DNA from: Eubacteriales bacterium
GTDB lineage: Bacteria; Bacillota; Clostridia; Oscillospirales; CAG-382
Length of the DNA stretch: 64,000 bases
Direction of reading: 5' to 3'
NCBI GenBank assembly: GCA_045589515.1
Contig: JAZNPH010000045.1
Location: forward strand, 5,560 to 69,559
The position numbers were made by a program, and so were the translations under genes. Below the pieces are notes generated by a model, which was not told where the DNA came from, did not search any database, and saw only the letters and a program-made list of their open reading frames with translations. This document shows positions 5,251-64,000 of this stretch, piece by piece (position 1 is the first letter of the stretch; every line of letters starts with the position of its first letter).

Positions 5251-5268
5251 CTTAAATCACGAAAATAC

Positions 5269-20198: not shown

Positions 20199-20222
20199 AT
20201 TCAATACCATTCCTTTTTTGAA

Positions 20223-33486: not shown

Positions 33487-33523
33487 ACCGAACGTCTCCT
33501 TTCTTTTGAATGTTTAATCGGAT

Positions 33524-34153: not shown

Positions 34154-34171
34154 TGATCAATTGCCCTCCTT

Positions 34172-36427: not shown

Positions 36428-36449
36428 TTTCGCTCACTTTCTGAATCTT

Positions 36450-37223: not shown

Positions 37224-37231
37224 ACACTACC

Positions 37232-38452: not shown

Positions 38453-38473
38453 TTTTCACCTCGGTAACGAATA

Positions 38474-39535: not shown

Positions 39536-39580
39536 ATACTCTAAAGCCTTTCTTTTCTTCCAAACACAAATAAAGCGAGA

Positions 39581-42899: not shown

Positions 42900-42919
42900 A
42901 TATCAGTACCGCCTTTCAA

Positions 42920-44116: not shown

Positions 44117-44161
44117 TCTAATTTCACACCTTTCTCAATTGTTTCAAGCGAAGAAAGATGA

Positions 44162-44551: not shown

Positions 44552-44571
44552 TTTAATCAATCTCCTTAAAT

Positions 44572-48116: not shown

Positions 48117-48160
48117 TAAAAAACGACCCGCTTACCATTTGGTAAAACAGGTCGTTTTTC
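48117..48160 (-). terminator. intrinsic terminator at the end of the SipW/giant-protein locus
   Basis: Minus strand: aaaacgacc...ggtcgtttt stem with the nested ttacc/ggtaa pair, followed by ttatcg. A second small hairpin aaaccg-catt-cggttt plus a T-run lies just downstream. Confidence 0.65.
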
Positions 48161-48162: not shown

Positions 48163-51100
48163 TTATTGGATCAAGAAATAATACTCGGCCTCCGCCACGG
48201 TGATCAAGCCCTGCTCGGCGGTCAAAACCAAGCAATAGCTGTTCGCAGAGTTACCTGCAAGAGAAATCTCCAGCTCTACGGTGTGTGCAATGAAATCCTT
48301 CGTGTCGATCTTTCTGGTGACGGCGGTACTGCTGTAGGTGCCGTCCTCGCTCTTGACCATCAGAACCAGCTCCAGCTCATGAGTGGGAGGCAGGTCTGCC
48401 CAGGAGACGGTTACCACAGCGGTAGCACCCACCTCATACAGCTTTTTGTCGGCGGTGATCTTCAGAGAAACGTTTTCACTGCGCACCGCTTTCAGCTTGA
48501 GCTCGGCGGAACGGAGAAGCTCGCCGTTCATGGGAGAGCCTTCCGCACGGGAGTTGGAGGAGCGCCATTCCACAGTGAATTGGTATTCCGTCTCGGTCTC
48601 GGGGAGTAGCCCGGATACCAGAGTGACGGTGATGAAGCCGCCGCCCTGCAGCATGGGATACACAAATTCTCCGTTGCTGTTGGCGTAGATCTCGGTGGTG
48701 GCTTCCCCGTTCTTCACCAAAAGGTGAGCGTCCGCGGGAAGGGTGACTCCGGATTGCGGGATGAATACCAGAGCTTCATCGCGGTTTTTCCACTTGGAGG
48801 CAATTCCCGCAGAGGGAGTGTAGATATAGTCAAGCTCGCCGTAATTCCCAGTAGCCGACAAGGTGTAGGAGGGTGCATCCTTTAAGGAGGTAACTGCCTG
48901 TTCCTGAACGTTTGCCGCACCGGAAGCGTCAGCCTTGTCTGCCGTAAGGGCGGTGGTCAAGGTATCCCCTGCCACGGTGCTGTCCGCGCGGGAGAAGTCT
49001 ACCACAAACTGCAGATTCAACGAGCCGTTTCCGTATGAGAATTTGATCTCTTCCGTGCCGAGGCGGACAAAGGAGGTCAGCTCCAGCGACGAATAGCCGG
49101 AAGCATCTGCCCAATAGTAAATGCCGGTGTTGCGATCCAACATCAGAACCGTGGTTCCGGTAGGAAGGGCGGCACTGAACATCAGCTTTATCGCCTTGTA
49201 CTCGGTGCTGTCGTAGTTGTCCACGTCAAAATAGACGGTGAAAGCGGAATCGCGGCTGATGGTTGCGGTGTCCGTGGTCACGGTTCCGAAGACCTGGTCC
49301 TCGGTGACCTTGGAGGAGACGGTCATCAGCTTTTTGGCGTCGGAAATGGTGATGGTGATGGTACAATCGGCGGGAATGTTATTGATCACATAGACCCCAA
49401 CAGAACCGTTTGGTGTAAGCACCGCTTCGCGGTCGTCCAAACCCTCGGTTTCTGTTTGAATGGTTACCGCATGCCCTATGGGATAGAAATAGCCGCTCTG
49501 CAAGGTATATTGCAAAGTGATACCGTTTTCCAGATTCGTGCCGTTGGCTTTCTCAAGGGTATATTGGATCCCCTCTCCGCAAATGACCTCCACCTTCACG
49601 TTACCGGTAAAGAAATATACGCTGTCCGCCGCTATTTGGGGAGAGGCGTTGTAGTTTGCCCCCTCGCTGTAGCGGGCGTAGATATAGTAGTTGGTCAGAG
49701 CGACGTTCAGCTCAAATTTGGCGGCATAGCCACCTTCAAGATCGCTTCCCTTGATCCATTCGGTAGAATACTCGACGCCGTTCGCGTAATACACCACGCG
49801 GTACTCGGCGTAGGAATCGTAACCGTCAGTGCCCGTCAAAGGAGAATTGGGAACGGGATATACCGAAAGAATCGAGCCGTCTGCGTCAATATTTGCATCG
49901 AACTTGGGTTTTTCGGCAGGTGCAGACTGGTCGGCCTTGGCGATGGTATAGGTGACGGATGCGGTACAATCTCCCGCCGTTACGGAGGCGGTGTAGGTTC
50001 CCGCGTACTTGGGAATACCAACATCCGTATCCCCTTGCCGATAGGTAACGGGCAGGCTCCAGGAGGAAGAACAGTAAACGCGGACGGGATGCTCCGCCTT
50101 GTCGTATACGGTGTTTTCCGCCGTCAGGGTGATCTGCTCGCTGTATCCGCCGCACTCACAGTCTCTGCGGAGAGTTCCGCCGTTTGCGGAATAGGTATAG
50201 GTATGGGTTTCGGGGTTATGGTCGCATTTTTGCCAAACGGCGTACAGGGTCACTACCTCGCCTTTTTTGGTGGTCAGGTTGGTGACCGTATCTTGATCTC
50301 CGTACTCCACTCCGCCGTCGGGGGTAGTGGACCAGCCTTGGAACAGATAACCGGGACGCGCGAATTGATTGGCGTCCAATTGAGTGGGCATGTCGTAGGT
50401 AAAGTTGACGCTGGGCATATTGCCGGAGTAGGTCTCCCCTGCAGGCACGTTGGGATCGTAGATCACGGTGTAGCCGTTGGGTTCCCAAATGGCATACAGG
50501 ATCAAGTCGCCGATAGGCTCTCCGTCGAACGTGTAGACCGACGAGACGTTAAACCAACCGGTTGCCTCACCCGGGTGCATCCCATACTCGTAGTCATCCA
50601 AGGGATCGTCGCTTTTGCCGGAGGAGGTGTTCCAGCCCTTGATGGTATAGCCGGGGTGGCTGTAGATGTTACCGCTGATGGTTACCTTGGAACCGATTAC
50701 TATCTCCAAAGACTTATACTGTCCGGTGGTGACGTTGGTGATGGGGTCGGTGAAGTTCTCGTAATAGTGGAGCTTGTAATACGCTTTCGTAATACGGTGG
50801 TCCTCGAAGTAGTCCCCCTCTTTTTTGATGTCGACGGTGATGACGTCCGAAATACGGGGGTTGGTCATATCACCCCACAGATCCATCTGACCGCCGGTGA
50901 CGTAAATGGAGTTCTCTACGTGGGTGTTGCCGAAGTTGGAATCCTGCTTTTCTTCATCCTGATGCTGAGAGGTGGTCACGGTGACCTTACCGCCGTCCAC
51001 TCTCATGAAATCGCTTTGACCATTGTCGGCGTTGGCGCTACTGCCTTTTTCCTCCAAGCAGTAGAGGTTCAGCACCGTGGAGGTATTACCGGTGACGTAC

Positions 51101-53751
51101 ACACCGCCGCCGGAAGCCAAAGAGGAATTGTATTTGATCACGGGACAGGTAACTGCATCGGCGCGGCCGTGGGGAACGTCCGAAAGCTTATTGCCATCGT
51201 CATCCACGTGCCTCTTATTGACGCCTACCGTTACCTCGATCTTCTCGGTGCCGTCTTGTGCGCCCACAACGGCCAAAGCACCGCCGTTACCGGTGGCTTC
51301 GTTATCGCTGACAGAACCGCTGTAAACGTTAACCGTTACATTTTGATCGTTTGCGCTGACGTAGATGCCGCCGCCCATACCGTTTTGGGCAGTGTTGCCG
51401 TCCACGTTACCGCCGGTCATTTGGTAGTTACCGTTGTTGACAGCGATACCGCCGCCGCTGTTCTGCGCCGTGTTGGCAGAAATGCTGCCGTTGGTAACCT
51501 CGACGTCGCCGCCGTTGATATAGGCACCGCCGCCATTCTCGGATGCGGAGTTGCCTGTGATGCTACCGCCGTTGACGGTAAATTTGCCGCCGCCAAGGTA
51601 GACACCGCCGCCGTTTTGTGCAGCGGAATTGGCTTTGATCTCGCCGCCTTCAACGGTCATTTCGCCGCCGCCAAGGTAGACACCGCCGCCGTTTTGGGTG
51701 GAGGAGCAGCCTTTGATCACGGCTTCCCCGGAGATGGTACAAGTGCCTGCGGTCATGTAGATCGCGCCGCCGTTTTCAGCCGCACAATTTTGAATGGTAC
51801 CGCCGGAAATCTCTACGGTTCCTCGGGAATCGTTCATATACACGGCGCCGCCGTTTTGCTGGGCATAAATAAACTGAGAAGTATCGCCTGTATCCACGCT
51901 ATGGAGGGTACCGCCTGTCATTATAAAGCTACAAGGCTGGGTGCCACCTTCCGACATCAGGAACTGGCCGCTGATATCGCCGCCGGAAATATCTGCTTTT
52001 GCGTAGCCAAGGCTACCCTCGGTATTTAAAGTATCACCGCCGCCGATGGAACCGGTTTTGATGACACCGTCGGTAACGTATACTTCTGCCGCACCGCCGT
52101 TACCGCCGGTACCACCTTTGCCGCCACCGATGGAAGCGGCTGTTAAGGAGCCTCCGTTGATCTTCACGGTAGCATCGCCGCCGTTGCCTATCTCGTTTCC
52201 GGCACCGCCGCCGATGGAACCGCCGACAGTCATGGTGCCTCCCTTGACGGTAATGGTTGCGCTGCCTCCATTGCCGGATTGACTCAGGCCACCGCCGATG
52301 CCGCCGGAAAGCGTAACGTTTGCCGTTCCGGAAATCGTTACGTCCGCGCTACCGCCCACACCGCTGGCACTGTCGCCGCCGCCAATGGAGCTGGCGATCA
52401 CAGTTCCGCCGGAAATGTTGATGGTCGCTTTACCGCCTGTAGAAGTTGAGCTGTTGCCGCCGCCGATGCCGTTGCCGAAGGTACCGTAGGCTTCCACATA
52501 GCCACCCTTGATCGTGACGGTACCGGTGGCGCCGCCGGCATTAAAGGAGCTTCCGGAGCCGATGGCAACACCGCCTACCACCTTATCATATGGCTTGTCC
52601 GGGGAGGTAATATTTGAACCATTAACATAGATCTTGCCATGGTTTTTTGCGTACACTTTGCCGCCGGTAATGGTAATATTGGAAGTGCCACCGGCACTGA
52701 ACCAACCGATGCCGCCTCCAATAGCCGCCCCTGTTCCATTGCAATGGGCGATGACCTCACCACCGGAAATCGTCATGGTACAAGACCCGTTTCCGCCGGC
52801 ACCGATGGCGGTACAGTTCTCCGCATAGGTGGTCAAGACCTGCAATTTGCCACCTGCGATCTCTAAGTTGGTTACGTTTGATACGCTGTCGTTTCCGCCA
52901 ATACCGGAATTCCAATGGTTATAGCTGGCGTTAGAGTTAACAAACGCATCGATCTGATCCTCAGGCACCTTTACAGGAATATATAAAGAGCCTCCGTCGA
53001 TTGCACCGTCGCCATTAATATCCGTGATTTTCAAGGAAGAACCGGCTGCATTACCCTGCGTATAATAATGAATCGCTCGAACAATGTTTTCGCCCTTCAA
53101 ACGCAAGATTACCTTTTTTGCCAAGGACTGATTTCCCGGCTGCATATCAATCGTTCCCTGAGCGTAGCTTGCCACATAGGACGTATTCGGAACGTGACCG
53201 CTTTTTGACGGACTTCCTAAATGGATGCCGGAAAGAGTAACGTCAAAGGGATCGGCAACCGCTCCGGTAAATTGAATGGTATTGGTTGAATAAGAAGAGA
53301 CGTCACTTTGTGTGATGACGTAGATATTGGAAGCTGCATGAGTTCCGGTAACAGCTCCCCCATTACCGGAGTAAGTGGCACCCAGGGTAACGCTTCCCTT
53401 GGAAAGGTCGAAGACCACCAGCTTTCCGATGGGGCCGACGGGATCGCTTTCCGTGCCGTTGGCTTTGACGCGAATGTATTTTCCCTCGTCGACGGCGGTG
53501 ATGTCATAATAGAAGTCGTTGGCACCGCTAATGTCGGCAAAGGTCCCGTCTACAGTGTCTGCTCTCTGCCACTGATAAGAAGCAGAGGAAGCTTCGGTTT
53601 TAGCTACCAAACGGGAACCGTTGGGCAAAACGGTCACGGGAGAGGCCGCCCATACGAATACTACGAAGAAAGATAAAACAAAGACGCTTACAACAAAAAG
53701 CAGACCCACTGCATAAAGGAGATGAGCGTTTTTTACGTTGTTCTTTTTCAT
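48163..53751 (-). CDS. giant secreted surface protein (1862 aa): signal peptide, Gly-rich and parallel beta-helix (PMP-like) repeats, two Listeria-Bacteroides-type repeats, C-terminal region shared with the 1513-aa paralogue
   Basis: Signal ...VFVWA|AS. Repeats SIGGG..., NGGGVYLGGG.., NGGAIYM, NGGALAV. GYTIKGWNTS...LYAIWE and GYLFQGWSTTPDG...LYAVWQ are Flg_new/List_Bact-type repeats. No LPXTG, SLH or C-terminal TM. Confidence 0.8.
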   Translation of the reverse strand: MKKNNVKNAHLLYAVGLLFVVSVFVLSFFVVFVWAASPVTVLPNGSRLVAKTEASSASYQWQRADTVDGTFADISGANDFYYDITAVDEGKYIRVKANGTESDPVGPIGKLVVFDLSKGSVTLGATYSGNGGAVTGTHAASNIYVITQSDVSSYSTNTIQFTGAVADPFDVTLSGIHLGSPSKSGHVPNTSYVASYAQGTIDMQPGNQSLAKKVILRLKGENIVRAIHYYTQGNAAGSSLKITDINGDGAIDGGSLYIPVKVPEDQIDAFVNSNASYNHWNSGIGGNDSVSNVTNLEIAGGKLQVLTTYAENCTAIGAGGNGSCTMTISGGEVIAHCNGTGAAIGGGIGWFSAGGTSNITITGGKVYAKNHGKIYVNGSNITSPDKPYDKVVGGVAIGSGSSFNAGGATGTVTIKGGYVEAYGTFGNGIGGGNSSTSTGGKATINISGGTVIASSIGGGDSASGVGGSADVTISGTANVTLSGGIGGGLSQSGNGGSATITVKGGTMTVGGSIGGGAGNEIGNGGDATVKINGGSLTAASIGGGKGGTGGNGGAAEVYVTDGVIKTGSIGGGDTLNTEGSLGYAKADISGGDISGQFLMSEGGTQPCSFIMTGGTLHSVDTGDTSQFIYAQQNGGAVYMNDSRGTVEISGGTIQNCAAENGGAIYMTAGTCTISGEAVIKGCSSTQNGGGVYLGGGEMTVEGGEIKANSAAQNGGGVYLGGGKFTVNGGSITGNSASENGGGAYINGGDVEVTNGSISANTAQNSGGGIAVNNGNYQMTGGNVDGNTAQNGMGGGIYVSANDQNVTVNVYSGSVSDNEATGNGGALAVVGAQDGTEKIEVTVGVNKRHVDDDGNKLSDVPHGRADAVTCPVIKYNSSLASGGGVYVTGNTSTVLNLYCLEEKGSSANADNGQSDFMRVDGGKVTVTTSQHQDEEKQDSNFGNTHVENSIYVTGGQMDLWGDMTNPRISDVITVDIKKEGDYFEDHRITKAYYKLHYYENFTDPITNVTTGQYKSLEIVIGSKVTISGNIYSHPGYTIKGWNTSSGKSDDPLDDYEYGMHPGEATGWFNVSSVYTFDGEPIGDLILYAIWEPNGYTVIYDPNVPAGETYSGNMPSVNFTYDMPTQLDANQFARPGYLFQGWSTTPDGGVEYGDQDTVTNLTTKKGEVVTLYAVWQKCDHNPETHTYTYSANGGTLRRDCECGGYSEQITLTAENTVYDKAEHPVRVYCSSSWSLPVTYRQGDTDVGIPKYAGTYTASVTAGDCTASVTYTIAKADQSAPAEKPKFDANIDADGSILSVYPVPNSPLTGTDGYDSYAEYRVVYYANGVEYSTEWIKGSDLEGGYAAKFELNVALTNYYIYARYSEGANYNASPQIAADSVYFFTGNVKVEVICGEGIQYTLEKANGTNLENGITLQYTLQSGYFYPIGHAVTIQTETEGLDDREAVLTPNGSVGVYVINNIPADCTITITISDAKKLMTVSSKVTEDQVFGTVTTDTATISRDSAFTVYFDVDNYDSTEYKAIKLMFSAALPTGTTVLMLDRNTGIYYWADASGYSSLELTSFVRLGTEEIKFSYGNGSLNLQFVVDFSRADSTVAGDTLTTALTADKADASGAANVQEQAVTSLKDAPSYTLSATGNYGELDYIYTPSAGIASKWKNRDEALVFIPQSGVTLPADAHLLVKNGEATTEIYANSNGEFVYPMLQGGGFITVTLVSGLLPETETEYQFTVEWRSSNSRAEGSPMNGELLRSAELKLKAVRSENVSLKITADKKLYEVGATAVVTVSWADLPPTHELELVLMVKSEDGTYSSTAVTRKIDTKDFIAHTVELEISLAGNSANSYCLVLTAEQGLITVAEAEYYFLIQ
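51586..51696 (-). repeat. 78-nt in-frame tandem repeat inside the beta-helix region (33-nt core identical)
   Basis: gccgccgccaaggtagacaccgccgccgttttg occurs at 51586-51618 and again at 51664-51696. It encodes NGGGVYLGGG(E/K)(M/F)TV(E/N)GG(E/S)I... 26-aa units. Confidence 0.8.
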
Positions 53752-53766
53752 AGTGCGTCTCTCCTT

Positions 53767-54588
53767 TTATGATGATAGGTCTTCTTTCTTGGCAATGTAT
53801 ATACCGTCGATGGTAATGATGAAATCTTCTATGGTATAGTTTTCGGGGTTGTCCACAAAGAAGCGGTAGGTATAGGAAGAATAGTTCTTGGTGAAGTTTG
53901 CGCTGTCTTTAAAAGAAATTGCTTGATAGGCGCCGTCTTTATAGTTATAGATCTCCCGCAGGGCGGGGTCGGTATTGTCGGGAATCAAGCCTGCTTTATC
54001 GCAGGAGACATACAGGGCACCTGCCACATTCTCCGTCCACACCGTAAGCAGGACGTAGGCGCTGTGAGAGGTATCCAGGTGTTTATACACGTTTTCCGCT
54101 TGGTCGGAAACGCGGAATTCTGCAGTCAAGGTCTGTTCGTAGCCTGCTTCTCCTGTGGCAACCACCGTATAGGTATTCCCCTTTTGGAGCTCCGACAGGG
54201 TGATGGTAACAGAAGACAGCTCGTTCCCCTTCAAGGTTCCGCCGGATACGCTGAGGGTGGGAGCGGGGGTCTGCTCTTCCTTGCAGGTCACGGACAGGGT
54301 GTAGGTTATATCGTCCTCGGAAAAACGCAGTTTGTCGATATGGTTTTCCAGAGTAAAAGTAACCGAGGTGGAGGTTGCATTCAGGACGTACTCTCCCTTG
54401 GTCTCTTTTAAAAGATTGCTGGTGAAGTAAAACTCCTTGGCATCAAACAGGTTTTCACCTTCGTTGGAATGGATATACTTGGCGAAAACACCGCCAAGGA
54501 TGGCCATCAGCACCACCGCCAGAACGCCGGTGATGATGTATTTGCGCTGAGAAAAGAACTTGTTATGGGATTTGCTTTGCTTTTCCAT
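53767..54588 (-). CDS. medium (273 aa) secreted protein with SipW-cognate-like N-terminus; paralogue of 59775..60521
   Basis: ...YIITGVLAVVLMAILGGVFAKYIHSNEGENLFDAKEFYFTSNLL. Shares FY..S(D/N)LL, LR.SE and PDNTDP motifs with the 248-aa protein. Start at 54588 (MEKQSK) is preceded by AAAGGAGA. Confidence 0.6.
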   Translation of the reverse strand: MEKQSKSHNKFFSQRKYIITGVLAVVLMAILGGVFAKYIHSNEGENLFDAKEFYFTSNLLKETKGEYVLNATSTSVTFTLENHIDKLRFSEDDITYTLSVTCKEEQTPAPTLSVSGGTLKGNELSSVTITLSELQKGNTYTVVATGEAGYEQTLTAEFRVSDQAENVYKHLDTSHSAYVLLTVWTENVAGALYVSCDKAGLIPDNTDPALREIYNYKDGAYQAISFKDSANFTKNYSSYTYRFFVDNPENYTIEDFIITIDGIYIAKKEDLSS

Positions 54589-54605
54589 CGGCAAGTCTCC
54601 TTTCG

Positions 54606-55097
54606 TCAATCTACCTGATGGGCTTCAATGAGAATCTCCACCAGATCTACCATGCCCATATATTCCAAAGCGCCTTCGGGATCCCAAAAGGCAGTAATGG
54701 TTACGGTGGACTCGGTGTTGGGCTCAATGTAGCAGGTAACCACACACTTCTTTTGAACCGGTTCGGAGCCGTTCACGGAGAACGCATACGGAATATTGCC
54801 GGTTTTGTTTTGGATGGTCACCTTGTAGCCCACGGCGACCTCGCTGTTGTTGGTAACGAGGATCTCTCTTTCAACCGTCCCGGGGACCGCATCAATGGTG
54901 AATTCCGATTGGAATGACGTGGCATTCTCGGAAATGTCAAATTTAGCAACCCGAGCAGAATCCTGCCCCGAGGAGGTGGTTGTGTAGCGGGCGTAAAGTC
55001 CCGAGAGCATGGAGGTGGAAAAGGCCGTCATACACAAAAGAATGAGAGCGAGGCGGATCATGAAATGCCCGATATAAATTCTGTTTTTACCGTTCAT
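54606..55097 (-). CDS. small (163 aa) TasA/camelysin-like candidate fibre subunit with SipW-cognate-like signal
   Basis: MNGKNRIYIGHFMIRLALILLCMTAFSTSMLSGLYARYTTTSSGQDSARVAKFDI... is near-identical in its N-terminus to 60533..61039. Ends ...LIEAHQVD. Confidence 0.6.
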   Translation of the reverse strand: MNGKNRIYIGHFMIRLALILLCMTAFSTSMLSGLYARYTTTSSGQDSARVAKFDISENATSFQSEFTIDAVPGTVEREILVTNNSEVAVGYKVTIQNKTGNIPYAFSVNGSEPVQKKCVVTCYIEPNTESTVTITAFWDPEGALEYMGMVDLVEILIEAHQVD

Positions 55098-55197
55098 TCG
55101 GAAACTACCCCTTTCTCTGATAATGCCTATTTATAGACCTATAGGGACGCGATGGAAAAGATACGCCACGCGTCCCTATGGTAAGCTTTCATTTCGG

Positions 55198-58100
55198 TTA
55201 CTCCAAGACAATCAAGCTGATGGGAACCTGAATCGTCTCGTTGTCGTTGTACGCTTTCAACAGCAAACGATAGGTTCCGGGAGATGTTTCGCCGCTGAGC
55301 TTCACCACCACGGTACCGTCTGCCAATAAACCGCATTTAAACACGCCGTAGTCGCCCTGTGTTACATCGTTCACCGCTTCGATGACGTTGGTTTGCGTCA
55401 CGTAGGCGGCGCCGATCTTCCTTTGGCATTCCACGGTAATAGTGTCGGCATTTTGGGTTTTAAGTTTCACGGTCAGTGCTGTGGTAAGCTCCTCGGTGTG
55501 GAGCAAACGATCGCTGACGAAATCCACCCGCAATGATGGTTTCGTTTTGTCGGAGACAGCAAGATTCACGGGAGCTGCAACGGCATTCCCCATCATCGGG
55601 GCAGAGCCGTCTGCGGTTGCGGACGCCCAAAGCTCTATTTTCAACGTAGCAGACTTTACCGTTGGCGAATGGAAGGAAAGCGTTACAGTTCCATCCCCCT
55701 CCTGGACAGACGGCAAAGGAATCAAGAAGGTTCCTGCACCGGACATGTAATAGCGGGAATCTCCCACTTTTACATAGGAATTCACAGGAAGTGCCGACGA
55801 AGATCCCGAGCTGATCACCAAAGAGAAATTTCTGTTGGTGTAGCGGGAATCAGAAACGGAGCACTCCGTTTTGTAATCCAGTGTGATCTCTTCCTCCACG
55901 GAAACGGATACCTGAGAGGTGGAGAGGGAAAACTCCCTCTTTTTCACCGTTTGGAAGGTTAGAGAAGCAGGCGCGGTATCGTCCGTGCCGGATTTGATAG
56001 TCCTTTGCAGGGAAACGGTGTTGGTTCGGCAGGTCTCCCCCGCTTCCGGGAAGGAGACGAGGAATAGCAACCGCTCCGTTGTCACCGCTGTGCTTTGGGA
56101 CTCTGTAAAGAACCCGTTTTCGCCCATGACCTTGAAGGATTTCAAAGGAATCTCGGTGGACGTCCCGTCTGCCGTATAATGATAATACTTCAGAGACGCA
56201 GAATCCGTCCAGTCGATCATGGTGATGGTGGTGCCTTCTGCCAAAGGCTTTCCGTTTTCAAAAACAAGCTTGAGATCCTGATAGTTGGCAGGAATATAGT
56301 CCTTTGTGACAAACTGTGCCGTAAAGGCAGAATCGGCGCTGACCACCGCACTTGTTTTCCCTTCGAAGGGAACGAAGACTTTACCTGCAACAATGGCAGA
56401 GCTGGTTGCTTCAGCCGCGGCAAGCTCGCGGCGGATGGTGATGAACACCGGTACGATAACGCCGTTATCCCCTACCAGCGTCAGTGCAACAGTACGTTCC
56501 GTTACGATATCGCTGAGAGCGTTTGCGTTTTCGATGGTGAAGATAAATTCGGGAGCTGTGTTCCTCGGCAAGGATCCGACCAAGGTATCGTCCTTTTTGA
56601 TGGGAACGGGGGGGCTTCCCACTTCGTCGGTGGCGCTGTTTTTCACCGAAACCTTGATACGGAAGTTTTCGTTTGCTTCCGCACTGGAGGCGGAGCTGAA
56701 GTCATACGTGCCGTCCATCAGGTTCACGTTGAAGGGTGTAATATGCTTGATGGAATAAGACTGAGCCAATATAAACTGTGGGAGAACGAAGGATGCGGTT
56801 TTGGAACCGTCCAGAGGCTCGCCCTTGGCCGCAGTCAAGGTGATCGATTTGGGAACTTCCGGAGTATATTGGAGCGTAATGGTACAGCCATCGGTAGATT
56901 GGATACCTGCAGTACTGTTGGAGCCAATGGTATAATGATAATAGCCACGGCTGTGCCAACGGATCTTCATACCTGCGAGCTGGGGATACTCCGTATCCTC
57001 CCCTGTGTATTTCAGGGGCACGGAAATAACACTGACCGACCCGTTGTTGATGATATCTCCATCTGCTATCACCTTAATGGCAGTAACCTCTTCCCAGGTT
57101 TTTCCGGAAGGAAGCGTTTCCACCCAATTTTGGGCACTATAAGCTTGATCGTAATTTTTCACTTCGTCAAAGCAATATCGAAGCTTTAATGGGGTCCCCT
57201 GCTGATTGTGCAGCGTTGGAGCGGAGCTGACCGCCAAAGTGATGTCGCACTGCTCCACAAAGTTGGAGTTGAGATCAAAGCCCTTCTTGGCGATGGGGAT
57301 GATGTAGTAGAAATCTTTTGCAGTACCGCCTTCGATGCACTTCACCTGCAACTGATAGGTAACGATATCCGCAAAGTTCTCCATGGGAACGTTGCTTCCG
57401 CTTTCTCCCTTGGAATTGATCAGGCTGTCAGTAATATCCAGCTCTGCGGGACGGGCAAAAAAGGTGACGGAGCCTGCAGAAGCGAAGCACCCCACATTAT
57501 CGCCGGTTCTCCCGTCACCGGTCAAGTCATACGTATCTTTTACAGCATTCTTTGAATACGAACCTCCGGCACCATTGCTCCTTTTATATCCGGCAACAAA
57601 CACACATTCGCGCAAATTAATCGTTCGGGTCGACATCGTGCTGTCGCTATTCAATTGAAGCGAAAACGATAATGTATTGCCGTGGGGCAATGCCCCTAAA
57701 GTCTCGTTATAATATCCAATCTTTTCGCCTCGTTTAAACTCGATGATGTAAAAAACATCCGTTGCACTAACCGGTTTAGGGGTTACATTAGCAACCTCAA
57801 GCGTTCCGCCCACATATTTGGCGGTAATGGAAGCAGTATTCACCGTAACGCCTTTGGGCAAAAGAAGACCGAGTCGAATATCGTTGAGACACGCATTACT
57901 GGTATAAGGGTATCGAATGACAAACACTCTGCCGCTAATTGTGACAGAACCGCCTGCATTTACGGAATTCGAAGATAGCGCAGCAGCTTCCAAGCCGTAT
58001 GATACACCGGTACCGTTGTCAAAAACCGAACTGCAGGTTGCATTGAAAACTTTATTCTTCTCCTCGCCGTCAACGGTGTATAACGTAATTCTATGCACCG

Positions 58101-59739
58101 GCTTTATAGCAGGCATCTCGGAAATGTTCACATATCCCCAAATCGTGCCGGCGGAATATGCGGCAGAAGAGGCACCGGCGTGGTATGCTTTACTGTTTCC
58201 CGGCAGATTCCCCATAGAATAGGAAAGCATTTTGAAATAATATGCACGATGATCCGCCGGAAGATTATTGCGGGAAAAAACCAGATAATGAGCTTCTGTT
58301 ATGGTTTTGCCCGGAGAGTAGTGCGGATTCTTGACAGAAGTCGTGAAAGAGCGCCCCTCAAAGGCAGGATTTCCGTCCCGATCCACCAAAGTATACTCAA
58401 TGGAAATCATCTCCGTATCTCTGTCACACATCAAGTTGACGGTGGTAACAGATACATGGTTTGTTTCATTGGTATCAAAAGAAAGTTCTATCCAAAGAGG
58501 CCCGCTACCGTTCAATGCGGAATCGTTGCGCATGGCAAGCGTTCCCATTAACTGAACTGCCTCCAAATCCAAAACATTTGCTTTCCCGTTCACGGTGTGA
58601 GCCTTTAAAACCGCCTCGGTATTGGTATCAAGGCGAATTGCAAAAGTATGATCCTTTAACGTTCTTCCGTCAATACTTACGGAAACCTTACCGTAGAATG
58701 TATAGTTGCCGGGAACGGATTTTAGTGCTTCCGGCGCTGAAAACAGAATTTCAAACAATTTTGAACTTTTGAAATACATCTGCTCTGCTCTGATTTGAAC
58801 AACACCCGTCTCCTCGTCATAAGATTCCGTAAACACAGGTGTCCCATTCGCCGTCGACAAAGAAACATTGCTGTACTTCAATCTATGGGTCGTACCGCTC
58901 ACGGTACACACAGGAAGACTGATACTGACCTTTAAATCTTTAATCAGATTATCACAACCTAAATTGTTCGATGAAAAATAAGAAAAAATAGTTTTAAGAG
59001 TCCCTTCGGCACCCATAATATCCGTGGCAACGGAGGAACCGCCAACCAAATAGGACGAAGTCGTCGTCTCATACGAAAGCTGACCGGAAACGGTGATCTG
59101 TTTCAAAGAAACCGAAGGTCCAACCGGTTCAAAAACACCTTCCCCATTTTCCTGCATCAACGTGAATTTCAAAAGCGGGGTTTCCCCATCGCCCAGGCCA
59201 CTGCCATTCTGCTTATCCCATAGGCCAGGGGTAAATCGGAACGGCAAGCTCATGGTAAGCGCATTTAAGCCCTCATTCAAGGTATAGGTCAATTGAGCAT
59301 AACTGTACTTATGCGGCGTATATTCTCCATCGGTATTGACCGTAAAAGGATCATTTCTCTGTGCCGTGATGGTAGCGTCCCCAGAAGAAGGATCGTCGGT
59401 TAGATTCACATACAGCACAGGGTCCATTTCAATTACGAAACGGTACTGCTTGTCCGTGGACATACCATCTATCTGAAGCCACAAATAACGGTCCGTGGAG
59501 GTGTAGTTTGCGTTGTCATACTCCCAGTCGGTCAATTTGGAGCCTTCCTGTGTGAGAGGGGTATCCAAGCTGGCTCGGTCGGCGTCGAAATACAGTCCCG
59601 CAGAGAAGCTGACATCACCTGCGGTATAAACCGCTTCTTCGGCGGCGGCAACCGTCGGGAGCGGGGGCATCAGGGGACAAAGGACGCAAAAGGTCAAAAG
59701 CCCTGCCAACAAACGCAATCCGATTCTTCTGTTGTTCAT
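55198..59739 (-). CDS. giant secreted surface protein (1513 aa), no recognised catalytic or anchor motif; C-terminal ~380 aa homologous to the 1862-aa protein
   Basis: Signal peptide ...LPTVAAA|EEA and a long beta-rich sequence. C-terminal VSADSAFTAQFVTKDYIPANYQDLKLVF...GTTITMID matches ISRDSAFTVYFDVDNYDSTEYKAIKLMF...GTTVLMLD of the other giant. Confidence 0.75.
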   Translation of the reverse strand: MNNRRIGLRLLAGLLTFCVLCPLMPPLPTVAAAEEAVYTAGDVSFSAGLYFDADRASLDTPLTQEGSKLTDWEYDNANYTSTDRYLWLQIDGMSTDKQYRFVIEMDPVLYVNLTDDPSSGDATITAQRNDPFTVNTDGEYTPHKYSYAQLTYTLNEGLNALTMSLPFRFTPGLWDKQNGSGLGDGETPLLKFTLMQENGEGVFEPVGPSVSLKQITVSGQLSYETTTSSYLVGGSSVATDIMGAEGTLKTIFSYFSSNNLGCDNLIKDLKVSISLPVCTVSGTTHRLKYSNVSLSTANGTPVFTESYDEETGVVQIRAEQMYFKSSKLFEILFSAPEALKSVPGNYTFYGKVSVSIDGRTLKDHTFAIRLDTNTEAVLKAHTVNGKANVLDLEAVQLMGTLAMRNDSALNGSGPLWIELSFDTNETNHVSVTTVNLMCDRDTEMISIEYTLVDRDGNPAFEGRSFTTSVKNPHYSPGKTITEAHYLVFSRNNLPADHRAYYFKMLSYSMGNLPGNSKAYHAGASSAAYSAGTIWGYVNISEMPAIKPVHRITLYTVDGEEKNKVFNATCSSVFDNGTGVSYGLEAAALSSNSVNAGGSVTISGRVFVIRYPYTSNACLNDIRLGLLLPKGVTVNTASITAKYVGGTLEVANVTPKPVSATDVFYIIEFKRGEKIGYYNETLGALPHGNTLSFSLQLNSDSTMSTRTINLRECVFVAGYKRSNGAGGSYSKNAVKDTYDLTGDGRTGDNVGCFASAGSVTFFARPAELDITDSLINSKGESGSNVPMENFADIVTYQLQVKCIEGGTAKDFYYIIPIAKKGFDLNSNFVEQCDITLAVSSAPTLHNQQGTPLKLRYCFDEVKNYDQAYSAQNWVETLPSGKTWEEVTAIKVIADGDIINNGSVSVISVPLKYTGEDTEYPQLAGMKIRWHSRGYYHYTIGSNSTAGIQSTDGCTITLQYTPEVPKSITLTAAKGEPLDGSKTASFVLPQFILAQSYSIKHITPFNVNLMDGTYDFSSASSAEANENFRIKVSVKNSATDEVGSPPVPIKKDDTLVGSLPRNTAPEFIFTIENANALSDIVTERTVALTLVGDNGVIVPVFITIRRELAAAEATSSAIVAGKVFVPFEGKTSAVVSADSAFTAQFVTKDYIPANYQDLKLVFENGKPLAEGTTITMIDWTDSASLKYYHYTADGTSTEIPLKSFKVMGENGFFTESQSTAVTTERLLFLVSFPEAGETCRTNTVSLQRTIKSGTDDTAPASLTFQTVKKREFSLSTSQVSVSVEEEITLDYKTECSVSDSRYTNRNFSLVISSGSSSALPVNSYVKVGDSRYYMSGAGTFLIPLPSVQEGDGTVTLSFHSPTVKSATLKIELWASATADGSAPMMGNAVAAPVNLAVSDKTKPSLRVDFVSDRLLHTEELTTALTVKLKTQNADTITVECQRKIGAAYVTQTNVIEAVNDVTQGDYGVFKCGLLADGTVVVKLSGETSPGTYRLLLKAYNDNETIQVPISLIVLE

Positions 59740-59774
59740 TGCTTTCTCCCCCCTTCGATGTCGTTGAAAATTTC

Positions 59775-60521
59775 TTACGGAACTGCTTTTGTCACAGTGA
59801 TCTGGCTGCTGTAATCCTTGGCGGGATCATTTTTATAAAAAGTAAACGTATACTGAGAATTTGCTTTGACGGTCACTTGGCAGGACATTCCGCTTGCGAA
59901 AGCCAGCAAAGGATCCGTATTATCGGGGACGACGCCATCAAGCCAGGAAATGATAACGTCCCCATGATAATCCGTCGTGGTAACGACAACATGCAGAAAA
60001 GGACTACCTATATTGTCATTTACCTGAACAGCCAGGTCAACGTTTTCCGCCACAACGGTGAAGCGCCCCTGCAATCTGGTTACGTAGGGAGACGTAGACG
60101 TGACGGTAACGGTGTAAACACCCGGTTCAAGGCCGTCAAAGGTAACGATCTCTTCGTCTCGAACACCCGCAGACAACGCAATGGTTTGCTTTTTCTCCCC
60201 GAAAGAAGAGGTCAGCACCACCTCGCATTGAACGGCAGTCTCGGAAACCCGTAATTCGTCGGGATAGTTCATCAACCGAAAGGAGATCTCCTTGACACCC
60301 GCTTGCAGAGTATACAAGGGAATCGGTTCGGTTTCAACCGCCAAAAGATCGCTTTCCAAGTAGAAGCTTTTGGCAATATAGGGCGTATCGGAGGTTTCCG
60401 CCGAAACGTATTTTGCCAACGTATACACACCCGCAGACACCGCAACGGCAAGCACGAGAAACGCCGTCACGGACAGGAGAATCATTCTGTTGTGGCGGGG
60501 AACTTGCTTGCGATTGTTCAC
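59775..60521 (-). CDS. medium (248 aa) secreted protein with SipW-cognate-like N-terminus; paralogue of 53767..54588
   Basis: ...MILLSVTAFLVLAVAVSAGVYTLAKYVSAETSDTPYIAKSFYLESDLL... and ...GVVPDNTDPLL.... Confidence 0.6.
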   Translation of the reverse strand: MNNRKQVPRHNRMILLSVTAFLVLAVAVSAGVYTLAKYVSAETSDTPYIAKSFYLESDLLAVETEPIPLYTLQAGVKEISFRLMNYPDELRVSETAVQCEVVLTSSFGEKKQTIALSAGVRDEEIVTFDGLEPGVYTVTVTSTSPYVTRLQGRFTVVAENVDLAVQVNDNIGSPFLHVVVTTTDYHGDVIISWLDGVVPDNTDPLLAFASGMSCQVTVKANSQYTFTFYKNDPAKDYSSQITVTKAVP

Positions 60522-60532
60522 CGGATTACCTC

Positions 60533-61039
60533 TTAATCGATCTGTTCTGTTTCTATAATCACCTGCAAAGCGTCCATTTCAAACGCTTGGGTAGCAGGCT
60601 GGGGAGATTCCCAAAGGATCTGTACCTCGTAGGTAACGGATTGAGATTCCCCTGCGTGGAAAACGCCTTGGATCTTGTCGATCTTCGTTTGCTCTCCCCC
60701 ATCCACCTTAAAGTACGTAAAGGCGAGGGGAAGGTTTTTCGTCAGATTGATCACCTTGACGCGGTATGTCTGGGCAACCTCGCAGACGGAACCGCCCTCC
60801 GTGTTTGTTATGGTAAAGCGGATGCGGTTTTCTTCACCCGGGGCGGCATACAGATCGGACAGGGTATAGGTCGCATCCCCGGCCATCAGCGCCACACGGG
60901 CGGAATCCTGCCCCGAGGATTTGGTGAGATAACGAGCATAGAGTCCCGACAGCATGGCAGTGGTGAAGGCGGTTGCGCACAAAAGAATCAATGCGAGACG
61001 CATGGTGAACTGTCCGCTAAGTATCCGTTTTTTGTCCAC
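60533..61039 (-). CDS. small (169 aa) TasA/camelysin-like candidate fibre subunit with SipW-cognate-like signal
   Basis: Start set at GTG 61039 (AAGGAGGG 6 nt upstream), because alignment with the 163-aa paralogue begins at DKKRILSGQFTMRLALILLCATAFTTAMLSGLYARYLTKSSGQDSARVA. Ends ...IIETEQID. Confidence 0.6.
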   Translation of the reverse strand: MDKKRILSGQFTMRLALILLCATAFTTAMLSGLYARYLTKSSGQDSARVALMAGDATYTLSDLYAAPGEENRIRFTITNTEGGSVCEVAQTYRVKVINLTKNLPLAFTYFKVDGGEQTKIDKIQGVFHAGESQSVTYEVQILWESPQPATQAFEMDALQVIIETEQID

Positions 61040-61055: not shown

Positions 61056-61643
61056 TTAGTCTTCGGTCTTCTCTTGCGTGTCTTCGGGTTGGTTCTGCAT
61101 AGATTGCAGGCGGCGGATCTCTTCCTTGATCTGCTCCAATTCATCCATGGATTCCTGTTTTTCCTTGCGGAAGGAACGTTCCATCAGGAAGAAAGCGGCG
61201 CCGAGGATGAGAATGATGCCCAAGGGAGAACGGATGAAGGTGAGGATCAGCCCCACATAGGGCAGAGAGGCCACCACTTCCCCTTTGATGTCGGAAAGCT
61301 TGATGGCGGGATCCGCAGTTTGATTGGCATCCCCTTGGGTGACGACGGATTCACCGTCGATGGAAATGATGCGGTGGACGATGAGTGTTCCGTAGCTTTG
61401 GTACACCACCACGTCCCCCACCTCGTAGGAATCCCGCGCGATGACGATGATCATATCGTTGACTTGAAGCTCCGGTTCCATGCTGCCGGAAAGCACCACG
61501 GAGGTTGCGAAGCCCAAGGGCATGGGCATTTTGTTGCCGCCGAGGCTGCGGGCGTTCCAGGAATACAATTGGATTCCCAGAAAAGCACCTGCCAGGGCGA
61601 TGATCACAATGCGCAGGATCAGGCGTTTTGTGTTGGTCTTCAT
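61056..61643 (-). CDS. sipW: archaeal/ER-type signal peptidase I (SipW-like, S26B)
   Basis: VLSGSMEPELQVNDMII...GDVVVY...LIVHRII...TQGDANQTADP is the Ser/His S26B pattern as in B. subtilis SipW. A C-terminal TM helix is followed by a charged tail. ATG at 61643 forms an ATGA overlap with the upstream stop. Confidence 0.88.
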   Translation of the reverse strand: MKTNTKRLILRIVIIALAGAFLGIQLYSWNARSLGGNKMPMPLGFATSVVLSGSMEPELQVNDMIIVIARDSYEVGDVVVYQSYGTLIVHRIISIDGESVVTQGDANQTADPAIKLSDIKGEVVASLPYVGLILTFIRSPLGIILILGAAFFLMERSFRKEKQESMDELEQIKEEIRRLQSMQNQPEDTQEKTED

Positions 61644-62560
61644 AAGGTATCGTATGCAGAGTGTCTGTTTTTTGCTTGGTAAACCACGTAAAGCCCTGCA
61701 AGGGCCGCCAAAGCGATCAACAACCACCAGAAGGTAGAGTTATCGTCCCCGGTGACAGGCAGGTCGCCGCTGCTGTTATCGGAATCGGCACTTTGCTTGG
61801 CGTTGGTTTCGATGATCACGGTGAGGGTGACCTCCTGGTTTTCCACTGCAAGGTTGCCCAGGTATGTGTCGTACTCGTCGTCCCCTTCAAAAGCCCATTC
61901 CCAATCCATGGTGTAGGTATGCTGTCTGCCTGCGCCGATGGTGCTTTCGCACACCATGCCGTCCAGATCCAGAATATCCTCAAAGGAATCTTCGGAGCCT
62001 ACGGCATAGCTTCCGTCGGCAGTGCGGAGGCGCACCTTGATGGGAACGTCGTGATCGCTGAAGTTGACGAAGGCGGAAAGGTCCAGAGAGTAATCCAAAG
62101 CGAAATCGCCGGAATTTTCCAGAGTGAAGGTATATGCGTTGGAGGTGCCGGGGGCGATGACCTTATCGGTGCCGCCGTCCACGGTGATCTTGCCCTCCCC
62201 GTTTTCATAGGAGACCTTGAACAGCTCCACGTTGGTAATGCCGTTCCAGATGGTATTTTCGTCCGCGGGAGTGGAAGACGTATCCAGAGGACGGAAGGTG
62301 TTCAACGCATAGGGAGAAGCGGGGATCTTCAGCTCCGCTTCGGGGAAGGTGATGCGGCCGTCTTCATCCATTCTGCCCACACGCACGGTGGTACGTGCGT
62401 GGGAGCGGGTAAGGGAAAACACGTTGCGGGAGGGCTCGCCGGAAAAGGGAGTGAGGCGGCTACCCAGCATCACCAGAGCGCAGGCTTCGAAAAGGAGCAG
62501 CAAAGCGATGAGAACGCTGAACACGCTGTTATTCTTTTTGAGGCTTTTGTACTCGTTCAT
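61640..62560 (-). CDS. TasA-like-domain surface protein with LPXTG cell-wall sorting signal
   Basis: N-terminal TM/signal. Body motifs SNAYTFTLENSGDFALDYSL and HTYTMDWEWAFEGDDEYDTYLGNLAVENQEVTLTVIIET parallel the 235-aa protein (FDISWKWLFEGDN...DTVLGDAA...LKIDITVTQ). C-terminus LPVTGD plus hydrophobic helix plus KNRH. Confidence 0.7.
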   Translation of the reverse strand: MNEYKSLKKNNSVFSVLIALLLLFEACALVMLGSRLTPFSGEPSRNVFSLTRSHARTTVRVGRMDEDGRITFPEAELKIPASPYALNTFRPLDTSSTPADENTIWNGITNVELFKVSYENGEGKITVDGGTDKVIAPGTSNAYTFTLENSGDFALDYSLDLSAFVNFSDHDVPIKVRLRTADGSYAVGSEDSFEDILDLDGMVCESTIGAGRQHTYTMDWEWAFEGDDEYDTYLGNLAVENQEVTLTVIIETNAKQSADSDNSSGDLPVTGDDNSTFWWLLIALAALAGLYVVYQAKNRHSAYDTL

Positions 62561-62644: not shown

Positions 62645-62693
62645 GAAAAAAGAGGGGAATACGCCCCTCCGACCCGGCCACGTCGGGTCGGAG
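62645..62693 (-). terminator. intrinsic terminator/attenuator directly after the 235-aa subunit gene
   Basis: Minus strand: ctccgacccg-acgtgg-ccgggtcggag, then gagggg-cgtatt-cccctc followed by ttttttc. Confidence 0.7.
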
Positions 62694-62722: not shown

Positions 62723-63430
62723 TTAGTCGATCTGGGTAACGGTGATATCGATTTTAAGACCAATATTCAAATCTGCCAATGCAGCAGCATCGCCAAGCAC
62801 GGTATCGTACACATCGGTCTGTTTAATCTTCTCGCCGGAGTTATCACCTTCGAACAGCCATTTCCAACTAATGTCAAACGCTGTACCATTAGTAATCTCG
62901 GACAAATCCTTGTTAGGATCATACTTTGCAGAGTATGCCTCGATTTTTTCTTCAACGGCAGCGATAAAGCCGTCCGCATTATCATAATCTAAACCAGAAA
63001 CAGTTTCAGTACCAATGGTAAAGACAACAGGGCAGTAGAACTTGTCTACTTCGTCTACTTCAACCAACCAATTATCAGAAAGAGTCATGGTCGCCACAAA
63101 CTTTACGTCAACTGCAACCTCAGGAGTTCCTGCAAGCGTAATCTCGGTAAGCTTACCCTGAGTACCGGGGGCGAGAACAAAATCCTTGTCACCAGTTCCA
63201 GAAGATACAGAATAAGTTCCGGTAAAATTATCATCTTCTTTCGCGTAGTCTTTTAAAAACAAGGTGTTGTTTTCAGCAACGATTTTAACACCGAACTTTG
63301 CAACTCTTGCGGTGTCGGTTGCGCTGTCAGAAGTAACATACTTCGCGAAGGTGCCGCTGATGGCGCAGGTGGACATGAGAACTGCGATCAAGAGAACGGA
63401 AGCCAGTCTCATCATCTTGTTTTTCTTCAT
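62723..63430 (-). CDS. 235-aa TasA/BsaA-like candidate major fibre subunit with SipW-cognate-like signal
   Basis: MKKNKMMRLASVLLIAVLMSTCAISGTFAKYVTSDSATDTARVAKFGV... with a strong SD (GAAAGGAG). Followed by its own terminator. Ends ...IDITVTQID. Confidence 0.65.
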   Translation of the reverse strand: MKKNKMMRLASVLLIAVLMSTCAISGTFAKYVTSDSATDTARVAKFGVKIVAENNTLFLKDYAKEDDNFTGTYSVSSGTGDKDFVLAPGTQGKLTEITLAGTPEVAVDVKFVATMTLSDNWLVEVDEVDKFYCPVVFTIGTETVSGLDYDNADGFIAAVEEKIEAYSAKYDPNKDLSEITNGTAFDISWKWLFEGDNSGEKIKQTDVYDTVLGDAAALADLNIGLKIDITVTQID

Positions 63431-63733: not shown

Positions 63734-64000
63734 TCACTCTGCCTTATTCTCTTCGGGGGCAGATTCTTTCGAAGGAGCTTCCGCAGGTTCTTCCGCAGGC
63801 GCTTCCGAGGGAGCGGTATTGGCGTTCTGCTGAGCCTGACGGGCGCGGAGGGTTTCCAGCTCTGCCAAGAGGGCCTTGGTGTCCGCTTGCTTTTCCTTAT
63901 CGAACTTGCGGCGGCGGAGCATCTCATAGGCGACAAAGATGCCCACGGGAAGGACGATGCACACCAGCAGACCGGGAGTGGTCTGGAGGAACATGGCCAC
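63734..64000 (-). CDS. 3' end of a second SipW-like signal peptidase gene (5' part outside the window)
   Basis: FLQTTPGLLVCIVLPVGIFVAYEMLRRRKFDKEKQ...LLAELETLRARQ aligns with the C-terminal TM helix and charged tail of the SipW at 61056..61643 (FIRSPLGIILILGAAFFLMERSFRKEKQ...EEIRRLQS). The catalytic part is not visible. Confidence 0.55.
   Translation of the reverse strand: MAMFLQTTPGLLVCIVLPVGIFVAYEMLRRRKFDKEKQADTKALLAELETLRARQAQQNANTAPSEAPAEEPAEAPSKESAPEENKAE

Follow-up and report, generated by a model that had tools for sequence, protein, structure and literature searches.

The TasA fibres of Bacillus subtilis assemble by donor-strand exchange (PMC9674648), and a model for the BsaA fibres of Clostridium perfringens envisions that a new, still membrane-tethered subunit accepts the strand of the growing oligomer before cleavage by SipW (PMC11580942). 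Strand-exchange heteropolymers have already been raised in this context, together with the presence of TasA/BsaA paralogues in operons that also encode LPXTG proteins, peptidases and sortases (PMC11580942), and loci of the TasA superfamily are predicted to encode, in many cases, a peptidase, minor subunits, tip proteins and LPXTG or SLH anchors (10.64898/2026.01.04.697558). Here we describe an operon from an uncultured member of the Clostridia, whose genome was assembled from a metagenome; it lies in a stretch of 64,000 nucleotides of contig JAZNPH010000045.1 (hereafter the window) and ends in two copies of a three-gene module for a small, a medium-sized and a giant protein. We suggest, with a probability of about 0.6, that this operon builds a SipW-processed, wall-anchored, TasA-like surface fibre, for which the two trios provide alternative tip modules with giant adhesins. 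In the best reading of the data, the small and medium proteins would serve as minor adaptors that fix the giant adhesin, via its conserved C-terminal region, to a donor-strand fibre. In literature searches, neither this set of genes nor the small-medium-giant module with its two types was found described, apart from general remarks in two preprints.

The two trios are the distal end of one ten-gene operon on the minus strand, which runs from window position 48163 to beyond 64000; that it is a single operon, and not two isolated trios, is indicated by the tight spacing of the genes, an ATGA overlap and an inverted repeat after the second giant gene. The initial annotation, made from the sequence of the window, had recognized the trios and delimited the unit at 48163-61039. 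These borders clip the functional unit, since the operon extends upstream to at least 64000, the window edge, and they miss four genes on the same strand just upstream of the trios that encode two signal peptidases, a major subunit and a sortase-anchored subunit. It is these four genes that reveal the identity of the system. The first of them, for the signal peptidase SipW-A, is cut by the window edge, so that only its 3' end (63734..64000) is present, encoding the C-terminal membrane helix and a charged tail. This fragment of 88 amino acids (aa) is 88% identical to the C-terminus of a 243-aa peptidase from a homologous locus (L016 in our numbering of such loci), and it shares 50-57% identity with the product of the first gene of the L001, L003, L014, L017 and L019 operons and 37% with that of L005; the SM[QY]P, H and GD.NN boxes are present in the full-length homologues. 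The next gene (62723..63430) encodes the putative major fibre subunit, a protein of 235 aa with an N-terminal membrane helix, a GTFAKY motif, a DTARVA strand and a TVTQID end. It is followed by the gene for the anchor subunit (306 aa; 61640..62560), which has a major-like domain, lacks the AKY/ARVA segment, and carries at its C-terminus LPVTGD, a membrane helix and a basic tail; residues 267-299 match the LPXTG anchor model TIGR01167 with 20.9 bits (cut-off 15.9). Elsewhere, xPx[TM]GD followed by a helix was found in five of the eight other loci checked, and a helix with a charged tail alone in L010, L012 and L019. The second signal peptidase, SipW-B (about 195 aa when counted from an ATG that overlaps the stop codon of the anchor gene; 61056..61643), displays SGSMEP, VHRI and GDAN boxes and matches the archaeal-type signal peptidase I model TIGR02228 (E=7e-21; 74.7 bits, above the cut-off of 51.85); its match to the SipW model (E=5e-18) is under the cut-off of that model.

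The six genes of the two modules are found on the minus strand exactly where the initial annotation had placed them. Module 1 consists of a small protein (60533..61039) with a membrane helix, an LYARY motif, a DSARVA strand, one beta-sandwich and an EQID end, whose length is 168 aa and not the 169 aa originally given; a medium protein of 248 aa (59775..60521) with a membrane helix, an invariant AKY, an invariant AK.FY.ES.LL segment and two beta-sandwich domains; and a giant protein of 1513 aa (55198..59739) that starts with an ordinary Sec signal peptide, is devoid of a wall anchor and is matched by nothing in Pfam or among PDB sequences. Module 2 comprises a small protein of 163 aa (54606..55097), a medium protein of 273 aa (53767..54588), and a giant of 1862 aa (48163..53751) that likewise starts with an ordinary Sec signal peptide and contains glycine-rich repeats of 26-28 aa ahead of a C-terminal region shared with giant 1. 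Residues 1094-1171 of giant 2 correspond to a Flg_new (Listeria-Bacteroides) repeat (PF09479, E=9e-8).

The proposed fibre subunits are connected by what follows their N-terminal membrane helix. A G-x-[FY]-A-[KR]-Y motif is conserved in the post-helix segments and is succeeded by D[ST]ARVA in the major and small proteins and by AK.FY.ES.LL in the medium proteins, which carry the motif as TLAKY and VFAKY; only five open reading frames (ORFs) of the 64-kb window possess this motif, all five within this operon. The N-terminus of the major subunit, MKKNKMMRLASVLLIAVLMSTCAISGTFAKYVTSDSATDTARVA, resembles the N-termini of the small proteins, the common signal and putative donor-strand segment being 50% identical over 38 aa, and at the other end of the chain TQID of the major subunit has its counterpart in EQID (module 1) and HQVD of the small proteins. 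The similarity extends to the folded domains: when the signal and strand segments were removed, hhalign related the major subunit to the anchor (98.7%, E=2e-16) and the small protein to the anchor (95.7%, E=9e-9), and the small protein weakly to the first domain of the medium protein (68-85%). It is through hhalign alone that the major subunit and the anchor are tied to the fold of the small protein. For small protein 1, an AlphaFold2 (AF2) model with a predicted local distance difference test score (pLDDT) of 80.5 displays a helix (residues 9-37), a low-confidence stretch (residues 38-54) and then eight strands; within the monomer, the DSARVA segment has a pLDDT below 55, as would be the case for a strand that acquires its fold only within a partner. 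In Foldseek, this model comes closest to the TasA fibre 8aur_A (E=5.2e-4) and, next, to the archaeal bundling pilus 7ueg_A (E=1e-3), which we take to be the two solved donor-strand fibres that are built without an usher; the chaperone-usher pilins FimG, FimF, PapA and CsuA/B are found among the further matches. The AF2 model of medium protein 1 (pLDDT 90.2) consists of a helix and two beta-sandwich domains.

Among the described systems, TapA-SipW-TasA of B. subtilis (8AUR; PMC9674648, PMC10151520) shares with the window operon a dedicated archaeal-type signal peptidase encoded in the operon and a minor accessory subunit; a special N-terminal signal followed by a strand-forming extension, and a beta-sandwich fold, are probably also common to both, 8aur_A being the best structural match of the small protein. 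It differs in that the window proteins stand outside the TasA/camelysin families by sequence, and in the composition of the window locus, where there are two peptidases, one sortase-anchored subunit, no fewer than four classes of subunit and giants of 1500-1900 aa, partners that TasA operons lack. The SipW-BsaA-BsaB-BsaC system of C. perfringens (PMC11580942) is likewise a clostridial SipW-dependent fibre with paralogous subunits and a large protein at the end of the operon (BsaC), and most strains possess an LPXTG-bearing BsaB-like subunit (PMC11580942). Export of the BsaA oligomer and of BsaC is reported to depend on type IV pilus proteins (PMC11580942), and type IV pilus genes are also located near the window operon. 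However, BsaC is a 70-kDa von Willebrand A protein and not a giant with the C-terminal region seen here, and the BsaA model TIGR04090 matches no window protein; it detects only the tail proteins of a third module type in L014 and L017 (see below), with E values of about 1e-9 that are under the cut-off. The AbpX, AbpA and Tafi loci of the TasA superfamily (10.64898/2026.01.04.697558, PMC9245690, PMC12337348) have the same predicted layout as the window operon, with a peptidase, major and minor subunits, a tip, and an anchor of the membrane, SLH or LPXTG kind; in the fold search, the small protein had 7ueg_A, the bundling pilus, as its second-best match. They belong to other sequence families, whereas the window encodes its tip by a module of three genes, one of them for a giant, of which there are two diverged copies, and the window signal peptidases are paired and of the two-helix type. 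By analogy, the window system would work like the TasA and BsaA fibres without being a member of the curated TasA or BsaA sequence families.

Two further kinds of pili are similar in part. The logic of type 1 and P pili, with a major rod, the FimF/FimG adaptors, the FimH tip adhesin and the terminator PapH, has its parallel in the window operon, and FimG, FimF, PapA and CsuA/B appear among the fold matches of the small protein, a likeness that is limited to the pilin fold. Release of the strand in the window system would, by contrast, come from cleavage of the signal peptide, and the window adhesins are 5-10 times the size of FimH and have no recognizable pilin domain. Membership in the chaperone-usher group was rejected: neither a PapD-like chaperone nor an usher was detected, and the host is one of the Gram-positive-type Clostridia, with LPXTG proteins and no outer membrane. 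SpaA-type sortase pili also have an LPXTG base subunit that fixes the fibre to the wall and a large tip adhesin; in the window operon, however, the anchor is the only protein with a sorting signal, and the subunits would be joined non-covalently. Membership in this group was likewise rejected, as there is no pilus-specific sortase in the window, no Cna-B/SpaA Pfam match among the operon proteins and no pilin motif.

To assess how widely this gene arrangement is kept, homologous loci were collected from the contigs of medium, small and major-subunit homologues by exact-protein look-up; pattern scans of a genome collection and of metagenomes with the medium profile yielded one locus each. Ten distinct loci besides the window have the medium gene directly followed by the giant gene, and in nine of the ten the small gene is directly upstream; the remaining one, L009, has a medium and a giant gene, and no upstream genes were found there, the small gene included. 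Upstream genes are visible in nine other loci, and in all of them the succession is peptidase A, major, anchor, peptidase B, small, medium, giant as far as the contig extends. A single module is present in L001/L002/L008, L005-L007, L010/L011, L012, L013, L018 and L019, and two modules, as in the window, in L003/L004; with the window included, the lengths of the giants lie between 1513 and about 4300 aa. Few members of the medium and small families were retrieved (36 and 42 clusters, respectively, in a word-indexed search). For the major subunit, 7054 clusters of homologues were obtained at E<=1e-3, all of them unnamed or hypothetical proteins without a Pfam or NCBIfam model, which come mostly from metagenome-assembled genomes of Clostridia, Oscillospiraceae and Ruminococcaceae. 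An exhaustive profile search retrieved the shared region of the giants in 359 representative proteins; among the matches listed it is situated at the C-terminal end of proteins of 1436-2871 aa.

The repetition of the trio noted in the initial annotation is confirmed. In pairwise BLASTP comparisons, the small proteins share 42% identity over 171 columns (E=3e-33) and the medium proteins 30% over 260 columns (E=6e-18), the latter with the FY..S[DN]LL, LR.SE and G[VL][VI]PDNTDP motifs in both copies. The stretch over which the small proteins are nearly identical measures 37-38 residues (RLALILLC...DSARVA; 32 of 37 residues identical) and sits behind an N-terminal tail of 12-13 residues; it is therefore not the N-terminal 45 residues as had been stated. 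A common C-terminal part of about 370 residues had been claimed for the giants, and this holds for one segment of about 345 residues (27% identity, E=3e-12), the only significant one found by BLASTP, in which residues 1081-1424 of giant 1 (55468..56499, minus strand), the proposed docking region, align to residues 1440-1782 of giant 2 (48406..49434, minus strand; also recovered by global alignment and profile). Global alignment reveals a fainter similarity that runs on to the C-termini. Between giants of different module types this region of about 345 residues is all that is shared, and the N-terminal bodies of the two window giants are indeed unrelated, as originally reported.

When every component was compared by BLAST with every locus, the medium and giant proteins fell into the same two types. 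Type 1 includes window module 1, the first module of L003, and the modules of L001, L005, L009, L010 and L019; type 2 includes window module 2, the second module of L003, and the modules of L013 and L018, while L012 is too divergent for either. The small protein tracks this split except in L019, where a type-1 medium protein and giant are combined with a small protein that is closer to small 2. Giants of the same type are collinear throughout (46% identity over 1494 residues; 36% over 2121 alignment columns): giant 1 is so over about 1500 aa with those of L001, L003, L005, L009 and L010, and giant 2 with that of L013, to which the second figure refers. When 105 full-length giants that share the C-terminal region were grouped, a single family emerged for the last 480 residues and exactly two for the N-terminal bodies. 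Pairwise-identity matrices over seven modules, the pairs of which are not independent, gave a correlation between the medium protein and the giant C-terminus of r=0.91 (0.75 within type 1) and between SipW-B and the anchor of r=0.88; the correlation of the first set with the second was near zero, and the small protein was intermediate. This pattern fits a tip unit made up of the medium protein and the giant, a separate core unit, and a small protein that may act as the adaptor between them.

These data modify the view of the trio as a display cassette with conserved accessories and swapped payloads. This interpretation is partly supported, in that the trio has a fixed order and behaves as a cassette towards the rest of the operon, and in that display of an adhesin by accessory proteins fits what is seen. 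A case in point is L016, whose core is near that of the window (SipW-B 85%, anchor 62%, major subunit 56% and SipW-A fragment 88% identical) and whose tip module is a different one. The notion of payload swapping itself is not borne out: the accessories are about as diverged between the two modules (42% and 30%) as are the giant C-termini (27%), a given type of giant is accompanied by the same type of medium protein in different genomes, and collinearity within types and the presence of just two families of N-terminal bodies speak against free variation of the payload. Instead, the accessories co-diverge with two stable adhesin types, and modules are exchanged between fibre cores.

The module in L016 belongs to a third type (L014/L015 7037-12477, L016 12392-19044, L017 12414-18137), which consists of a small-like protein of 174-210 aa, an optional AKY protein of 188 aa, a giant of 1404-1632 aa that ends in a DWSW[KR][YH] motif, and a tail protein of 181-195 aa. 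L016 has all four (174 aa, 188 aa, a giant of 1632 aa with a C-terminus different from that of the window giants, and a tail protein of 195 aa), while L014 and L017 are without the 188-aa gene. By hhalign, the proteins of this module type are unrelated to the window families apart from one weak match, that of the 174-aa small-like protein of L016 to the anchor (86.9%, E=4e-6). In L016, the gene immediately after the tip module encodes a pilin, and a sortase and a Cna-B protein are encoded downstream of the type-3 module in L014/L015.

Within the framework of a SipW-processed, wall-anchored fibre, we picture signal cleavage, strand exchange, the order of the subunits and adhesion as follows. 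On export, the major, small and medium proteins would each bear a membrane helix at the N-terminus, with G-x-[FY]-A-[KR]-Y as its end, and one of the two archaeal-type signal peptidases encoded in the operon would cut at this motif. The N-terminal strand thereby set free, D[ST]ARVA in the major and small proteins and AK.FY.ES.LL in the medium protein, would then enter the beta-sandwich of the next subunit by donor-strand exchange. Assembly would begin at the tip, where the medium protein holds the giant adhesin by its conserved C-terminal region and, with its two Ig-like domains, bridges the giant and the small protein, into which the strand of the medium protein would be inserted. The small protein has a strand of the type found in the major subunit and could for this reason join the fibre; its strand would enter the first major subunit, and further major subunits would be added serially. 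The anchor, having the same domain and no strand, would accept the strand of the last major subunit and end the fibre, whereupon a housekeeping sortase would link it to the cell wall. The only other sorting signal in the window is found in the product of the adjacent 5'-nucleotidase gene; as it has the same xPxTGD signature, a matching sortase should exist in the genome, although none is encoded within the window (no TLxTC motif in any ORF of at least 100 aa). With two diverged modules, fibres with two different adhesive tips would be formed. It is pure speculation that the invariant Asp of D[ST]ARVA may, by analogy with BsaA, lock the subunits covalently.

Several observations weigh against the fibre with tip modules as outlined here. 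The fold match of the small protein is modest (E=5e-4, template modelling (TM) score 0.37-0.41, with 0.37-0.39 for 8aur_A and 7ueg_A), the low TM score being due in part to the inclusion of the membrane helix in the query, and the medium model matches only generic tandem Ig-like folds in Foldseek. In hhalign comparisons with both shallow and deep profiles, the giant C-terminal region proved unrelated to the small, medium, major and anchor profiles. Scans of the operon proteins against Pfam and NCBIfam recognized the peptidase, the sorting signal and one Flg_new repeat, and nothing else; for the domains of the major, small, medium and anchor proteins, no match of the TasA/BsaA type (Peptidase_M73, TIGR04090, TIGR04088, TIGR04089) was obtained at E values up to 0.1-1. 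Sequence searches of the PDB with profiles of the major and small families and with both giants as single sequences were empty as well. Furthermore, the correlations between components derive from seven modules with non-independent pairs, and the N-terminal helices might be uncleaved membrane anchors.

This last point is at the heart of an alternative in which the small and medium proteins are not built into the fibre at all but are membrane-tethered assembly factors, that is, chaperones resembling TapA or CapP, nucleators, or helpers in export of the giant, which would fold or hand over the giant or start polymerization of the major subunit. TapA has been reported to act as a chaperone of TasA by strand complementation (PMC10151520), and CapP has been described as a chaperone-like factor (PMC13082335). 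The long and confidently predicted N-terminal helices in both AF2 models are compatible with such a role, as is the general build of the medium protein, which with two Ig domains in about 200 residues recalls pilus chaperones; its tight co-variation with the giant is also what a dedicated chaperone and its client would display. Yet the post-helix AKY motif is invariant and shared with the major subunit, which argues for the same processing, the small protein combines the strand motif of the major subunit with a pilin-like fold, and PapD-like chaperones are absent from the top 50 fold matches of the medium protein. We therefore regard a pure assembly function of the two proteins as unlikely. 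A more radical proposal would detach the giants from the fibre and view them as secreted or matrix adhesins in their own right, which happen to be transcribed together with a TasA-like matrix fibre; additional minor matrix proteins, without a physical link to the giants, would then be the role of the small and medium proteins. There is a precedent in BsaC of C. perfringens, which shares an operon with BsaA and BsaB and for which no attachment to the fibre has been reported (PMC11580942), and the failure to relate the giant C-terminal region by sequence to any subunit points in the same direction. Four findings are difficult to reconcile with this proposal: the Pfam and NCBIfam scans detected no wall-binding or anchoring domain in the giants, the giant gene comes directly after the medium gene in ten of ten other distinct loci, the medium protein and the giant C-terminus co-vary with each other and neither does so with the core, and one C-terminal region has been kept across two otherwise unrelated giant bodies. 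In our view, giants without a connection to the fibre are distinctly improbable.

The origin of the tandem also has to be considered, as the earlier picture of swapped payloads would imply a recent local duplication after which the body of one adhesin was replaced. The modules are adjacent and have the same gene order, and the block of 37 aa is highly similar in both small proteins. At the DNA level, however, the likeness between the two modules is confined to one stretch of 129-143 nt with 72-74% identity, and within the 37-aa block, in spite of 86% identity of the protein, only 14 of the 32 identical residues are encoded by the same codon. Such limited DNA similarity and differing codons indicate that the duplication is ancient, and the small number of shared codons points to selection on the peptide and not to gene conversion; recent duplication and gene conversion were rejected on this codon evidence. 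Moreover, the nearest relatives of each module are found in other organisms: small 2 is closest to its counterparts in L013, in L019 and in the second module of L003, and medium 2 shares 42% identity with the medium proteins from L013 and from that same L003 module, and 39% with the one from L018. Both types also occur singly in other organisms, the succession of a type 1 and a type 2 module recurs in L003, and there are only two types of giant body among the 105 representatives. A recent duplication with subsequent replacement of the adhesin body is hardly credible in the light of these data. Phase variation by inversion was considered as well and dropped, since no convincing inverted repeats of the invertible-promoter type surround the modules.

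Returning to the wall-anchored fibre with tip modules, we tentatively suggest, with rather less than even confidence, that gut and rumen Clostridia possess widespread, unannotated heteropolymeric pili in which a pair of SipW peptidases drives a tip-first assembly by strand exchange, a sortase-linked subunit without a strand serves as terminator, and exchangeable three-gene tip modules set the binding specificity. If so, these would be a chaperone- and usher-free Gram-positive counterpart of chaperone-usher pili, and strand exchange of the TasA type, so far a principle of simple matrix fibres, would also apply to a wall-anchored pilus that has many parts and bears giant adhesins. Were the model correct, the loci would encode a main surface-attachment organelle of abundant uncultured gut and rumen bacteria, and the tip modules would decide what these bacteria stick to. 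The seven gene families defined here could be made into annotation models.

Several elements of the operon might influence its expression. A terminator-like hairpin with a T-run, found by a consensus scan, is located directly 3' of the major subunit gene (62649..62670, minus strand), and a second GC-rich hairpin was read from the sequence just upstream of it; the former may stop part of the transcription and in this way set the ratios of the subunits. An 11-bp stem-loop without a T-run (55141..55179, minus strand), likewise read from the sequence, lies in the 100 nt that separate giant 1 from small 2; it could have a function in RNA processing or stability and so set the two modules apart. Just past the stop codon of giant 2, an inverted repeat with 15-nt arms, an 11-nt loop and flanking A/T runs (48119..48159) likely marks the end of the operon as a terminator. 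In the giant 2 gene, DNA repeats with a period of 78-84 nt (51430-52470) encode the glycine-rich units of 26-28 residues (GGxG, NGGG[VA]Y), a sequence pattern that suggests a beta-helical repeat body; type-2 giants span 1436-2871 aa, and repeat expansion may be the cause of this range. The giant of L005-L007 has an additional cysteine-rich N-terminal extension of about 240 aa, and the giant genes of L005 and L006 differ by an indel (1765 versus 1723 aa). In these loci, which come from rumen or gut metagenome contigs, genes for a relaxase, a MobC-like protein, a tyrosine integrase and a serine recombinase flank the operon (1-6500 and 18900-20744), and the fibre operon appears to ride on a mobile element.

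Directly after the window operon lies the gene for the wall-anchored 5'-nucleotidase (46142-48019, minus strand), whose IPATGD sorting signal has the same shape as LPVTGD of the anchor. An IS200-type Y1 transposase gene (45424-45894, minus strand; E=2e-40) is located between this gene and an operon for a sodium-pumping oxaloacetate decarboxylase with alpha, beta, biotin carrier and gamma subunits (41484-45138, minus strand); similar Y1 transposase genes adjoin the homologous operons in L014/L015 and L017. The type IV pilus cluster (32074-41269, minus strand) lies about 7 kb downstream of the fibre operon and is complete, with PilB- and PilT-like ATPases, PilC, a prepilin peptidase, a PilM-domain protein and two N-methyl pilins. 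A LytTR-type two-component pair, made up of a GHKL histidine kinase and a LytTR response regulator, is encoded about 20 kb from the operon (26587-28838, minus strand), and such a pair is immediately upstream of and divergent from the homologous operons in L013 (1885-3872), L014/L015 (1463-3450) and L017 (6943-8930); it is possible that this pair regulates the fibre operon. The interval that separates this pair from the pilus cluster (28874-32057, minus strand) encodes two proteins that look secreted and have beta-sandwich domains of the cohesin and cadherin-like kinds.

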